IMG/VR virus record: IMGVR_UViG_3300028453_000030
Length of the DNA: 4,607 bases
From: a virus
Taxonomy: Duplodnaviria > Heunggongvirae > Uroviricota > Caudoviricetes
Reading direction: 5' to 3' (one strand)
This document shows, one piece after another, positions 54 to 4,480 of this stretch. Under the pieces are notes generated by a model, which saw only the letters and a program-made list of their open reading frames with translations, was not told the origin of the DNA and ran no database searches. Each line of letters opens with the position of its first letter. Positions within the stretch are counted from its first letter, which is position 1. The translations under genes and the position numbers were made by a program.

Positions 54-173
54 TTATGGTTGAATAAGCCACTCGATATCTGGTGCTACGGAAGTGTCCA
101 CACGGTTTAGCAGCACCCGATACTTTTTCCAGGCTTCCAGCAACAAGTTTTCTTCCTCCGTTGCATATACAGC
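54..173 (-). pseudogene. tfa: 3' remnant of a tail fibre assembly gene (tfa): C-terminal 39 codons only, no start codon
   Basis: Minus-strand translation of 57-173 is [39 protein letters not shown], then TAA at 54-56. It is bounded upstream by an in-frame TGA (174-176) and has no ATG/GTG. The motif [24 protein letters not shown] matches the C-terminus of phage lambda Tfa as I recall it; this was not searched. Confidence 0.6.
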
Positions 174-519: not shown

Positions 520-1560
520 TTATTTAGACGCAAGCGCCGCCTCAATTGCAGATAATCTTTGTCTTAATTCTGCGTTTTCTTCTTCCAGTGCTGTTATTCT
601 GTCATCTGACTCTCTGGCTACCTGAACAAGCAAGCCAGTAACACCAGAATAATCTACTGTGTAATAACGTTCACCTTCTTCACCTTCCGATCCGCTTGCA
701 CCGTCCTGATATTTCATTGCGGAACCTACAACTTCTGGGATTGCTTCCAGAGCTTCCTGTGCAATGACACCAGCATAGGGCATACCGTTTTCTTTAAGCG
801 TGTATGTATAGCCGTTCATTTTACGGATGCGGTCGGTTGCATTATCGATCACCTGAATGTTGTCTTTCAGATCCCGGTCGGAATGCTGGTTAAATGTGGT
901 GGCATGACATGCACCATTAACGCTTAACATATAGGTGTTATCGGTATTTTTCTGCGCATAGAACATATAAGCGCCACCATCAACACCGACTTCATAAACA
1001 ACAGGACGGCTGGAGTTGCCCCACAATTGAGCAGTAACACCAGCATAAGCGGTTCCCTGTGTGTTTAATGTCATGGTTGACCCATGATTGGCATATTTGA
1101 TCTGTAATGTGTCGGTGTAATCAAATTTAATAAGCGCGTTACTTCCACGCTTGCTGTATGACATAAGGCAGTTACCCATTTTGAGGTATCCGCTGTCACC
1201 GGGAAAAATCATCGTACCGCCATAAAGGTTGGTAAAGTCCCAGCAAATGTTTGTCCCGTTATCGTTCAGGTTAAGGCGCGCCATTGCGTTACCTGGACTG
1301 TCTATCCATTTTTTGAGGTATAGTTCGCAATACGCATCCTCAACACCTGCCGTCCTGTGAGTTGAGCGGAGTTTTCTCCCAAATATAGCTCCGCTAGTTG
1401 GCAATACCTGCTGATACCATGAAACAGACCAGTCACCAACGATTTCATCTTTGCTGTCTACATATAATTTTGTTGCGTAGCTTCCTTGATCGTTTTTTAA
1501 TTTGCTAACGTCGGATTTTAGCGTTTTGATGTCATCAGGAATTACTGTCGATGTAGCCAT
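520..1560 (-). CDS. tail fibre / tailspike-like protein with C-terminal intramolecular chaperone (peptidase S74-type, endosialidase-chaperone) domain
   Basis: 346-aa ORF with RBS GAGG 7 nt upstream of the ATG at 1560. Residues ~227-346 (plus 523-882) read SDRDLKDNIQVIDNATDRIRKMNGYTYTLKENGMPYAGVIAQEALEAIPEVV...YYTVDYSGVTGLLVQVARESDDRITALEEENAELRQRLSAIEAAL. This is the S-D-x-x-x-K ... IAQE ... terminal coiled-coil pattern of self-cleaving C-terminal chaperone domains of phage fibres (K1F endosialidase, T5 pb1). The N-terminal ~226 aa are beta-rich with a short coiled-coil-like start. Confidence 0.85.
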   Translation of the reverse strand: MATSTVIPDDIKTLKSDVSKLKNDQGSYATKLYVDSKDEIVGDWSVSWYQQVLPTSGAIFGRKLRSTHRTAGVEDAYCELYLKKWIDSPGNAMARLNLNDNGTNICWDFTNLYGGTMIFPGDSGYLKMGNCLMSYSKRGSNALIKFDYTDTLQIKYANHGSTMTLNTQGTAYAGVTAQLWGNSSRPVVYEVGVDGGAYMFYAQKNTDNTYMLSVNGACHATTFNQHSDRDLKDNIQVIDNATDRIRKMNGYTYTLKENGMPYAGVIAQEALEAIPEVVGSAMKYQDGASGSEGEEGERYYTVDYSGVTGLLVQVARESDDRITALEEENAELRQRLSAIEAALASK

Positions 1561-1569
1561 TTTTCTTCC

Positions 1570-1851
1570 TCACATCCAGCCACGAAGTTGATGCTCAACA
1601 GCAACCACGTATTCATCGAATATTGACGATATTTGCGAATCATTAATGATGCGCACGTTTACAAAATATCCGTCTTCCTTAACACATACCGGTTCGCCAT
1701 CTTCAGTCAGTTCTCCGGTTTCTTTGTACACATTACCTATCACGTCAATAAGAATATCATCCTGCATCGACTCGTCATCATAATAGCCAATGCTCTCCAT
1801 AAAGGCCGAAAAGTCGGCCCTGTCTGCAAATTTGAGTGTTAAATCTTTCAT
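1570..1851 (-). CDS. small acidic hypothetical protein (93 aa), translationally coupled to the tail fibre gene; possible fibre chaperone or accessory protein
   Basis: The ATG at 1851-1849 overlaps the stf TGA stop (1850-1848) as ATGA, and GGAG lies 8 nt upstream inside the stf 3' end. The protein is D/E-rich (MKDLTLKFADRADFSAFMESIGYYDDESMQDD...). It has no resemblance to lambda Tfa; family not recognised. Confidence 0.55.
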   Translation of the reverse strand: MKDLTLKFADRADFSAFMESIGYYDDESMQDDILIDVIGNVYKETGELTEDGEPVCVKEDGYFVNVRIINDSQISSIFDEYVVAVEHQLRGWM

Positions 1852-4244
1852 TTAATACTCTCCCCCATTTGCGCATCAGTTAATTCTTTATGCCAGAGAC
1901 GAAGATTTCTCAAATGGCCGAATAGATGACGAGTTCCCGATGTGGCTTGACCTCCAATTCGAATAAAGGTCCGTGTTTTTACGCCCGTCCACTCCGTTTT
2001 CATAGTTTTAGTAGCCTCACCGTTAGAAACTACTCGTTTAGTACCATCAGAATAAATATTAAAACCACCAATGAATTTTCGAACATCAGTTCGACCAGCA
2101 AACACACTAGAAACGTAAGTACTTGTCGACGCTTTATAAGTTTGTATATAAAGCTGACCGTAATATTTCTCAGTTGTGTTAAAAGCGTATGTAATTGACT
2201 CAATAGGTGGCACACCAGAAAAATCAAAAATACGCGGTGCTACATTAGGAGGAATATCGCCCCAATTTCTATTGACCTCGACAAGACACGTAAGCGGTCT
2301 ATTATAGATATTATTTTCAGTTGGGATCGTCACCATATCACTGGAGCGGGTTGCGGGTGCAGTTGTCGTAATAACAAAAGATGAAGCACATCCGCCGTTT
2401 TCAAATTGTGGTGTTGCAAGGTAAATATAATCTCCCGCTTCAGTTATACCACCTTTTTTCGGCGCATACTGAATCATTGCGCCAATTAAGGCTTCACCTT
2501 CAACAGCTTCTATAGTTGCCTCATAGAAAATCCACCCTGTAACCGGATCTTTAGTTGCAGTAGCTGCTATTCTATTGGCTGCTCCGCCAGTTTTTTCTAT
2601 TATCAGAGTTCCGAAAGTTAAATAAGCATCTCCTAAAAATGTATAAACCGACCCATCGTATTTTTCAAAACGCAAACGACAACGAAGACCATCAGGAGCT
2701 TTAACCCTGCATGAAACAGTGCAATACTTATTATCGCCACTAACATCAATCCCCCGGGATGCACTGCATGTATGCAGACTAAGTGCAGATGATTGTCCTG
2801 TCATATTATCTTTTGTTCGCATTTTGGCATATAAAAAACCAAATTCATCAACACCATTATTAGTTTTATCGATATTGCTGGTACTCGTCCATTCAGCGGG
2901 AGTATTGGATTTAACAAAATAGTTAGTGCGCTGTCCTTCAATCAATAAACCTTCTTTTTCAAATCGTGGCTCATCAATTTTAGCAACACTAAATACGCCT
3001 GATTTATTGATATATGTGGCAGTTGATGCGCGTTTAAACTTAACAACCTTGTCGCCAGGCATCGTTATTTCATCATCACCAATAACAATTTTTTTATATG
3101 ACGGCGAAAAGCCCGTAATCATATCCAGTGAATCGTTAAACGGTATCCACACATCAGGCAGTGGCTGTAAGACATATTTATACGGCTCTGCTGCCTGACT
3201 TGCATACTCTCTGGCTGCGTCTTCACTTGCTTTAGCTGCTGTCTGGCTTGCTGCCGATGCTTTCGCCGAGTTCGCCGCTGCAGTCTCGCTTGTCTTTGCA
3301 TTGGTTTCACTGGTTTTTGCCGCTTTTTGACTGTTGGCTGATGCAGTGGCAGAAGCAGCCGCCGCGCTTGCAGAACCAGCTGCCGCGCTCTCGCTTTGGG
3401 CTGCTGCAACCTGGCTGTTTTTCGCCGCAGTTTCGCTGGCTTTGGCATTCGTTTCGCTGGTCTTCGCTGCCGTCTGGCTGGACTTTGCGTTAGTTTCACT
3501 CGTCTTCGCAGCTTTCTGGCTGTTAGCCGCAGCAGTTGCTGATCCAGCTGCTGAAGTCGCAGAACCGGCTGCCGCGCTCTCGCTTTGGGCTGCTGCAACC
3601 TGGCTGTTTTTTGCCGCAGTTTCACTGGCTTTGGCATTCGTTTCGCTGGTTTTCGCTGCCGTCTGGCTGGACTTTGCGTTGGTTTCGCTCGTCTTTGCGG
3701 CTGTCTCGCTATTTTTCGCGTTGGTTTCTGATTTTTTGGCTGCTGTCGCGGAGTTTGCCGATGCAGTCTTTGAGGTCGCTGCCGCCTGTGCACTATTAGC
3801 TGCATTCGTTTCTGAGGTTTTCGCCGCGTTCTTTGATGATGCCGCTGCAGTTTCGGATTTCTTTGCCGCCGCTGCGCTCTGAGAGGCGGCTTCGGCGTTG
3901 CGTGCCGCTTCTTCCACCATTACCTCAAAACGACGCAATGCCTCCGGCATGACATCCTCTTCCGTCATGGCACCGAGAAAATCATTCAGCGTGCCTGGTC
4001 TGGAACCTTCATAGACGGTAATGGTCCCGGCATGTGAAGGCGGAAAACCTTCAACCAGCAGGGTGACGCTGTACTGGCCATACTCAACATCCATGCTGTA
4101 ACGCCCGGCTTCATCCGGATTTTCAGAGGCCACCGTATTCACCAGTACCGTGGTGCTGTTACGCTTTGCTTTGAGCTGAATAGTGCAGTTCTGTATTGGT
4201 TTTCCTGCACCGTCTTTCAGCACGCCTGAAATCTGTACTGCCAT
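1848..4244 (-). CDS. stf: side tail fibre protein (Stf-like, 798 aa): lambda-type N-terminal domain, heptad-repeat Ala/Ser/Thr shaft, divergent C-terminal receptor-binding region
   Basis: ORF 1848-4250 on the track. I place the start at the ATG 4244-4242 (MAVQISGVLKDGAGKPIQNCTIQLKAKRNSTTV...), which has GGAG 5 nt upstream; the track's GTG at 4250 would add two residues. The N-terminal ~115 aa closely match lambda Stf (MAVKISGVLKDGTGKPVQNCTIQLKA..., recalled). Residues ~117-346 are AK.SETN-type heptads. The C-terminal ~450 aa (plus 1851-3212) are unlike lambda Stf and end ...FIRIGGQATSGTRHLFGHLRNLRLWHKELTDAQM, reminiscent of a LamG/concanavalin-like jelly-roll C-terminus. Confidence 0.9.
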   Translation of the reverse strand: MAVQISGVLKDGAGKPIQNCTIQLKAKRNSTTVLVNTVASENPDEAGRYSMDVEYGQYSVTLLVEGFPPSHAGTITVYEGSRPGTLNDFLGAMTEEDVMPEALRRFEVMVEEAARNAEAASQSAAAAKKSETAAASSKNAAKTSETNAANSAQAAATSKTASANSATAAKKSETNAKNSETAAKTSETNAKSSQTAAKTSETNAKASETAAKNSQVAAAQSESAAAGSATSAAGSATAAANSQKAAKTSETNAKSSQTAAKTSETNAKASETAAKNSQVAAAQSESAAAGSASAAAASATASANSQKAAKTSETNAKTSETAAANSAKASAASQTAAKASEDAAREYASQAAEPYKYVLQPLPDVWIPFNDSLDMITGFSPSYKKIVIGDDEITMPGDKVVKFKRASTATYINKSGVFSVAKIDEPRFEKEGLLIEGQRTNYFVKSNTPAEWTSTSNIDKTNNGVDEFGFLYAKMRTKDNMTGQSSALSLHTCSASRGIDVSGDNKYCTVSCRVKAPDGLRCRLRFEKYDGSVYTFLGDAYLTFGTLIIEKTGGAANRIAATATKDPVTGWIFYEATIEAVEGEALIGAMIQYAPKKGGITEAGDYIYLATPQFENGGCASSFVITTTAPATRSSDMVTIPTENNIYNRPLTCLVEVNRNWGDIPPNVAPRIFDFSGVPPIESITYAFNTTEKYYGQLYIQTYKASTSTYVSSVFAGRTDVRKFIGGFNIYSDGTKRVVSNGEATKTMKTEWTGVKTRTFIRIGGQATSGTRHLFGHLRNLRLWHKELTDAQMGESIK
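3213..3902 (-). repeat. coding 21-bp (heptad) periodic repeat region forming the fibre shaft
   Basis: The protein reads as consecutive heptads (AKTSETN, AKSSQTA, AKASETA, AKNSQVA, AAQSESA, AAGSATS ...). The DNA shows recurring gctttggc / gtttcgctgg / ctttgcg units. Confidence 0.7.
3370..3704 (-). repeat. in-frame tandem duplication, period 189 bp (63 aa, nine heptads), about 94% identical over ~146 bp per copy
   Basis: Copy 1 at 3370-3515 and copy 2 at 3559-3704 align with an offset of exactly 189 bp and about eight transition differences. The protein segment AKTSETNAKSSQTAAKTSETNAKASETAAKNSQVAAAQSESAAAGSA occurs twice. Confidence 0.85.
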
Positions 4245-4259
4245 ATTCACTCCACAAAT

Positions 4260-4290
4260 AAAAAAGGCGCCATTTCTGGCGCCCGTATTT
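4260..4290 (-). terminator. rho-independent terminator between the J remnant and stf
   Basis: Plus 4266-4283 is GGCGCCA-tttc-TGGCGCC (7-bp GC-rich stem, 4-nt loop). On the minus strand the hairpin is followed by TTTTTT (plus 4260-4265), then ATTTGTGGAGTGAAT-ATG of stf. The plus-strand side has only a weak T tract (cgtattt), so it works mainly for minus-strand transcripts. Confidence 0.6.
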
Positions 4291-4302
4291 GGGTTATAAA
4301 AC

Positions 4303-4480
4303 TCAACTGATACTGATACCGGCTGTTGATTTCTTCATCACGACAACAAGAAGGTCGCTGATACTGGTCGTTGGCGTCCAGTTATTAGCACCATATGAAG
4401 AAACATTGAAAGTCAGGGTGACATGACCGTGTCCGGCAGGCATATCAATGACGGATGAAAATACCCTGCTGACATCCGTC
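4303..4480 (-). pseudogene. J: 3' fragment of the host-specificity / central tail fibre gene J (last ~58 codons), truncated at its 5' side by the IS insertion
   Basis: Minus-strand translation of 4306-4479 is [58 protein letters not shown], with TGA at 4305-4303. Lambda J ends ...VFSRIVDMPAGRGNVILTFTLTSTRHSADIPPYTFASDVQVMVIKKQALGISVV (recalled), giving the same VxDMPAG.G.V.LTF ... SD..V.V.KK...GIS pattern. The frame runs straight into the IS terminal repeat at 4481. The internal ATG at 4443 has no RBS. Confidence 0.7.

Follow-up and report, generated by a model that had tools for sequence, protein, structure and literature searches.

A mosaic side tail fibre in an Escherichia coli lambdoid prophage: a lambda-type anchor and a predicted two-domain, lectin-like head

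What does a side tail fibre (Stf) recognise when it is anchored like that of phage lambda and ends in a part that lambda does not have? The question is raised by the stf gene in a 4,607-nucleotide stretch of DNA (IMG/VR record IMGVR_UViG_3300028453_000030, hereafter the window), which is the tail end of an Escherichia coli lambdoid prophage. We propose, with a probability of about two in three, that its product is a naturally mosaic lambdoid Stf made of a lambda-type anchor, a heptad shaft and a two-domain, non-enzymatic lectin head, and that it works with a partner protein, p93. An earlier note on this DNA had described a lambda Stf anchor fused to a foreign distal domain with a LamG-like C-terminus, possibly a glycan-binding tip. 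The features of the window are collected in Table 1.

The distal part of the fibre (window 1851-3212, minus strand) translates to REYASQAAEPYKYVLQPLPDVW...HLFGHLRNLRLWHKELTDAQMGESIK, 454 residues in length. Searched against lambda positions 15000-23500 (J to ea47, all frames), it showed no significant similarity, the best E-value being 0.36 in an unrelated frame. No similarity to lambda orf-401, orf-314 or tfa was detected either, and thus no lambda-like, Tfa-dependent tip. The distal part contains only 4 histidines, to be compared with 5.1% histidine and 11.7% glycine in lambda orf-314. Both the claim that the sequence departs from lambda Stf at about residue 345 and the claim that the Gly/His-rich distal repeats are lacking are therefore upheld. 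The 454-residue module is a widespread unit: 1900 representative homologues were retrieved at E<=0.001, those aligned in full ending a few residues from the C-terminus of their protein. At least 80% of the module was found in 224 of 5426 complete E. coli genomes (~4%), and part of it in about one third.

Domain 1 of the head was recognised by the NCBIfam model NF048003 (GTA_spike_fiber) with 57.5 bits for a cut-off of 36 (E 2.4e-15), over positions 1-181 of the 182 of the profile. Searching the PDB sequences with the single sequence gave a marginal match (E 0.031) to Rcc01080, the head spike fibre of the Rhodobacter capsulatus gene transfer agent RcGTA, so that a family profile was required. 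The profile, called A1, was built from 48 diverse members and matched Rcc01080 over chain residues 45-280 with an E-value of 9.1e-40. It also matched residues 217-411 of gp17, the distal tail protein (Dit) of Shigella phage Sf11 (E 1.1e-16), and two baseplate wedge proteins, gp45 of Pseudomonas phage E217 (E 3.9e-15) and gp46 of Pseudomonas phage Pa193 (E 1e-14). Matches restricted to the C-terminal domain of the module were obtained with the S-layer-domain protein 4qvs (E 2.4e-5), BoNT/D Hc-N (E 0.012) and a pentraxin (E 0.022). The head spike fibre of RcGTA attaches to capsular polysaccharide (PMC10218006, PMC7296036), and its AlphaFold model has been described as a two-lobed beta protein "as in lectins" (PMC10218006). 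It is the sole relative with a known ligand.

AlphaFold2 was run with A1 on the distal 454 residues and returned an all-beta model (pLDDT 91.1, pTM 0.88). In a Foldseek search, tandem laminin LG4-5 ranked top, followed by the Pa193 and E217 wedge proteins, CBM40, neurexin LNS, pentraxins and BoNT Hc. Many of the further matches were concanavalin A-like lectins and carbohydrate-binding modules, domain 4 of AbnA being, in our view, one of the latter; the fold searches assign the head to the concanavalin A-like lectin/glucanase class. From the sequence matches and this model, the head is predicted to consist of a neck, bearing the family motif RASTATY...EPRFE..GLLIEGQ.TN, and two tandem concanavalin A (ConA)-like beta-sandwiches. 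The jelly roll of LamG type announced by the earlier note is recovered as the second of them, but the head holds two such domains, not one.

For domain 2, Pfam gave no distal match when the whole protein was searched at the default cut-off; the LamG signal came only from the head searched alone and from its homologues. In the head, PF13385 (Laminin_G_3) aligns below its gathering threshold, distal residues 386-448 corresponding to profile positions 87-149 of 151, and the C-terminal motif that had been flagged as LamG-like lies inside this alignment. The same profile matches 32 of the 48 family members at E<=0.01 (best 1.9e-11), and the membership of domain 2 in the Laminin_G_3/ConA-like clan holds by transitivity at the family level, in agreement with the predicted fold. 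Related head alleles match CBM_4_9 weakly. A regular-expression search of the 454-residue head for the GH16-type catalytic motif ExDx(x)E found none.

Among 80 IMG/VR loci, anchor, p93 and p102 (a small protein encoded further downstream) are ~90-100% identical, and head alleles stand at 100, 78, 71 and ~58-61% identity. Identity between alleles was also calculated block by block along the distal module. Distal residues 1-60, within the neck, are 95-100% identical in most alleles, although the head domains reach only 10-60%. Domain 1 (distal residues 101-300) is 25-75% identical between alleles and ~70-95% where the allele is shared. Domain 2 (residues 301-420) falls to 5-55%, with hypervariability at 341-420, and the last 34 residues return to 70-100%. 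Where anchor, p93 and p102 are all at least 90% identical, domain 1 still diverges to 25-70% and domain 2 to 5-50%. One locus (L028) combines a different domain 1 with an identical domain 2, and another (L032) nearly the same domain 1 with a different domain 2; the two domains assort independently among otherwise near-identical prophages. Positions conserved throughout the family (distal 59-97, 269-292 and 420-448) cluster in the terminal strands of each sandwich, indicating that the sandwich cores are conserved and the remainder is free to vary. This is how receptor-binding domains that are exchanged through conserved recombination seams would be expected to vary. Together with the homology to RcGTA, the pattern is consistent with the lectin-like receptor-binding tip suspected previously; that the tip binds glycans is inferred.

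At the other end of the protein, the anchor scored 222.9 bits against PF08400 (Pfam cut-off 26.6, E 1.6e-66), and its first 115 residues share 83% identity with lambda orf-401, the Stf N-terminus, as had been claimed. Similarity to lambda extends to about residue 274 at 61% and then fades (tblastn E 7e-74). Between anchor and head, residues ~110-346 are composed of 36% Ala, 19% Ser, 13% Thr and 10% Lys. Their autocorrelation is 0.48-0.52 at lags 7, 14, 21 and 28 and ~0.15 elsewhere, and the 7-residue periodicity continues without a break until the distal part begins. This is compatible with a coiled-coil trimer, the form we infer for the shaft, and is no proof of it. Tandem Repeats Finder detected a repeat of 189 base pairs (63 residues, nine heptads) at 3276-3710, with 2.3 copies and 85% match. 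The lengths of the homologues range from 694 to 795 residues, which the repeat fits; these differences probably arise from changes in copy number, which would alter fibre length. The GC content is 0.37-0.43 in the DNA of the head (1851-3150) and 0.53-0.58 in that of shaft and anchor (3150-4050). This fits a separate origin of the head, with the caveat that alanine codons raise the GC content of the shaft.

All sizeable genes of the window are on the minus strand. Read from the highest coordinate downwards, the order is gpJ 3' end, hairpin, stf, p93, fibre 2, hairpin, p102 and a Tfa remnant. The likely start of stf is ATG 4244 (MAVQISG...), which is preceded by GGAG and gives the 798-residue numbering already used in the earlier note. 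The product matches phrog_1419 ("tail protein") end to end and is named "prophage tail fiber N-terminal domain-containing protein" in RefSeq. Upstream, window 4255-4480 is 100% identical by BLAST to gpJ 3' ends and contains the final 59 gpJ codons, the J stop being at 4303-4305; a lom remnant at 4262-4480, which was also considered, was rejected on this ground. Thus stf lies directly downstream of J, and so follows J as a lambda-type Stf gene does. The window contains no lom, and none separates J from stf. The order in relatives is J - lom - stf; in phage PhiR49_1, as in related prophages, stf stands between J/lom and the remaining fibre genes. From ~4481 to the end of the window, the minus strand encodes the C-terminus of an IS3-family-like transposase that abuts the gpJ end. 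Judging from this arrangement, gpJ seems to be interrupted here by an insertion sequence (IS) element and the prophage is probably defective. A total of 47 complete genomes carry 80% or more of the window, at 98-99% identity. The "side tail fiber protein" gene of PhiR49_1, an infectious phage with ECOR13 as its host, is 98.4% identical to stf at the DNA level, so this fibre type would work in an actual virus.

Two GC-rich hairpins, each with a T-run behind it, were observed on the minus strand at 4265-4284, just upstream of the stf start, and at 499-513, just after the fibre 2 stop. Bracketing stf, p93 and fibre 2, they suggest that this group is transcribed as a unit of its own inside the late region.

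Table 1. Features of the 4,607-nucleotide window, with coordinates, strand and basis of assignment
Feature	Coordinates	Strand	Details
Side tail fibre (Stf) gene	1848..4244	-	798 residues from ATG 4244; mechanical open reading frame (ORF) 1848-4250, 800 codons, GTG 4250
Lambda-type N-terminal anchor domain	3852..4244	-	ORF residues 3-133; PF08400 phage_tail_N
Ala/Ser/Thr/Lys-rich shaft, ~34 uninterrupted heptads	3213..3851	-	residue autocorrelation
Neck of the distal module	2913..3212	-	distal residues 1-100; highly conserved between alleles
Head domain 1, GTA head-spike-fibre type beta-sandwich	2343..2945	-	ORF residues 436-636; NF048003
Head domain 2, Laminin_G_3-like (ConA-like) jelly roll	1851..2312	-	distal residues ~301-454; Pfam match 1869-2057
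p93, acidic 93-residue protein	1570..1851	-	isoelectric point 4.05; ATG overlaps stf TGA (ATGA); phrog_1361, unknown function
Fibre 2, short tail fibre, 346 residues	520..1560	-	phrog_4563 tail fibre; Peptidase_S74, E 4.8e-14 (Pfam)
p102, small hydrophobic protein, 102 codons	184..492	-	phrog_1443, unknown function; RefSeq start Met6, 97 residues
Tfa C-terminal remnant, 39 codons, lambda-type	54-173	-	in relatives, incomplete tfa (RefSeq)

The p93 protein is at least 81% identical (mostly at least 90%) in 78 of 79 IMG/VR loci extending as far as its gene, regardless of the head allele. Homologues of p93 lie directly downstream of the fibre in relatives from Escherichia ruysiae, Buttiauxella, Leclercia, Plesiomonas, Aeromonas and Enterobacter. 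In the first five of these the head identity is only 24-46%, and the stop/start overlap is kept in most. A search begun from p93 homologues returned the order J - fibre with the head (28-34% identity) - p93 - second fibre in Leclercia- and Enterobacter-type prophages. The contig scan for relatives used one narrow pattern and yielded 10 loci, so that this taxonomic breadth is a lower bound. In four Leclercia/Enterobacter prophages (L095, L098, L088 and L093) we observed fibres with a different N-terminal anchor (MATLDDDLAKAV...). They retain a KTSETNA-type heptad shaft, the two-domain head and p93, and their second fibre has a short conserved N-terminus specific to the lineage. Among 1026 homologues of p93 none is named, and no informative fold match was obtained. 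Its position, which is that of Tfa in lambda, and its coupling to stf suggest a fibre assembly or accessory factor.

Fibre 2 carries a C-terminal intramolecular chaperone domain (Peptidase_S74) at residues 227-278, window 727-882. It exists in at least two types: an alternative 234-residue type, which also has an S74 domain, has only residues 1-32 in common with it (66-72% identity), which suggests a conserved docking partner for these 32 residues. Fibre 2 is absent from Lambda_2E9 and E. ruysiae, both of which retain stf-p93-p97, and the head is therefore not there merely to carry it. The p102 gene is ~90-100% identical in most IMG/VR loci and lies beyond the terminator-like hairpin that follows fibre 2. 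No match to its product was found in Pfam, NCBIfam or PADLOC. From its long hydrophobic stretches it is possibly a membrane protein, and it could be a moron expressed in the lysogen, for example for superinfection exclusion. The Tfa remnant downstream suggests that the block from head to p102, with p93 and fibre 2, replaced an ancestral stf tip and tfa. The p93 partner, the second fibre gene, the wide spread of this prophage fibre type, phrog_1419 and the NCBIfam domain had all escaped the earlier note.

Read as a whole, the fibre would work as follows. Its lambda-type N-terminal domain would fix it to the tail tip, and the ~34 continuous heptads would make up a long shaft, helical and presumably trimeric. 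The 454-residue head would stand in for the lambda-type Tfa-dependent tip and would act in the first, reversible step of adsorption, most likely by binding a surface polysaccharide (O-antigen, capsule or lipopolysaccharide core) non-enzymatically. We favour a glycan-binding, non-enzymatic head because of the ligand of RcGTA, the allele pattern and the missing GH16-type catalytic motif. With a trimeric shaft, each fibre would display up to six binding domains. Host range would shift when either head domain is swapped, the crossovers falling in the conserved neck, at the junction of the two domains and in the conserved last strands. The translationally coupled p93 would be a dedicated partner in the place of Tfa, and fibre 2, with its own chaperone domain, would add a second specificity; these two roles, like the trimeric state, are presumed here.

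Several observations weigh against this account. The fold evidence is a predicted monomer, obtained as a single-chain AlphaFold2 model, and domain 2 itself scores below the PF13385 gathering threshold (19 bits against 27.6, E 0.0016). The solved proteins that contain domain 1, Pa193 gp46 and Sf11 gp17, are structural attachment proteins in which no ligand is reported for this domain: the Sf11 gp17 homologue is an "extra appendage" unresolved in the map, and the Pa193 gp46 paper gives its homologue no function. ConA-like domains can instead have proteins as ligands or act as glycanases. The literature was searched for binding or host-range experiments on the protein or its close relatives, and none was found. 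Lastly, with gpJ cut by the IS element, the fibre may be idle, or never used, in this particular prophage.

The attachment role of Pa193 gp46 and Sf11 gp17, on which fibres or tailspikes are mounted, raises the thought that the head is a docking platform, a branching adaptor for fibre 2, which alone would bind the receptor while the lectin-like domains were structural. A conserved 32-residue N-terminus joined to a freely exchanged remainder is what a plug for a conserved socket would look like, and the order fibre - p93 - second fibre recurs in the Leclercia, Enterobacter and Aeromonas relatives. However, both head domains are hypervariable among near-identical cassettes, as a socket should not be, and the type of fibre 2 does not co-vary with the head allele. 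Lambda_2E9 and E. ruysiae do without fibre 2 altogether. Moreover, attachment in the solved proteins goes through parts other than the homologue of domain 1, namely loop 80-113 of Pa193 gp46 and a helix of Sf11 gp17 with contacts at 129-152. We hold a docking head to be unlikely for these reasons. A head that binds a protein receptor, such as an outer-membrane porin, is just as unlikely in our view. Protein-binding cases do occur among its LamG/LNS and BoNT Hc fold matches, and OmpC has been suggested as the receptor used by the Stf of Ur-lambda (PMC11990801). Against this, capsular polysaccharide is the ligand of the nearest relative in sequence for which one is known (PMC10218006), the top-scoring fold matches include several carbohydrate-binding modules such as CBM40, related alleles match CBM_4_9 weakly, and polysaccharides are the general target of siphophage side fibres.

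An enzymatic head, that is a ConA-fold glycanase or depolymerase of GH16/GH7 type cutting the surface polysaccharide, is very improbable; it was rejected since the catalytic motif is missing and the fold scores are weaker. A wider form of the lectin-head reading would make stf, p93 and fibre 2 one conserved host-range cassette, which gives lambda-like tails a branched side fibre of dual specificity. Its shaft would be tipped by two lectin domains, each exchangeable without the other, p93 would represent an unrecognised class of assembly or adaptor protein replacing Tfa, and fibre 2 would plug in by its 32-residue N-terminus. We advance this extension tentatively, as a conjecture with the odds against it.

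The strain reach of lambda-like phages and of lambda-based delivery particles is set by their side tail fibres, and lambda-derived particles have already been engineered with other Stf chimeras (PMC11338833). For such work, the mosaic fibre proposed here offers two separately exchangeable lectin-like domains, conserved recombination seams and the indication that p93 probably needs to be co-expressed. A connection is also drawn between a coliphage fibre and the head spike with which a gene transfer agent binds capsule. Our view of phage adsorption is not changed by it; a well-defined module is added to the catalogue. Part of this was on record, since phrog_1419 covers the full protein and an NCBIfam model covers domain 1, in both cases with generic annotation only, and ConA-like domains on phage fibres have been noted earlier (e.g. 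PMC11058221). Literature searches on this Stf type, PhiR49_1 and the ECOR phages returned nothing specific. Gifsy-1 Stf, which binds Gal II of the lipopolysaccharide core, was considered as a studied relative and set aside, being a lambda-Stf orthologue throughout with another head type. Nor do the engineered lambda Stf chimeras (P2, K1F, K5, KL106) provide a precedent, as the head module is not used in them.

Compared with known systems, the fibre resembles lambda (Ur-lambda) Stf in its PF08400 anchor, its Ala/Ser-rich heptad shaft and its position downstream of J. It differs in its unrelated distal 454 residues without a Gly/His-rich tip and in the lack of a functional tfa, the next gene being the unrelated p93 and the Tfa remnant lying further downstream. 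With RcGTA Rcc01080 (NF048003) it shares homology of head domain 1 and flanking motifs. Rcc01080, however, is a single chain of 325 residues held on the capsid through 10 residues at its N-terminus. In the present protein the domain sits at the end of a long tail fibre, with a LamG-type domain after it that the profile search did not align to Rcc01080. The likeness to the Laminin_G_3/ConA-like superfamily (LamG, pentraxin, CBM40, BoNT Hc-N) is that of a predicted beta-sandwich fold, from a sequence that by itself stays under the Pfam gathering score. Finally, in E217 gp45, Pa193 gp46 and Sf11 gp17 the homologue of domain 1 decorates baseplate or Dit proteins, whereas in the present fibre it stands at the tip and is hypervariable.

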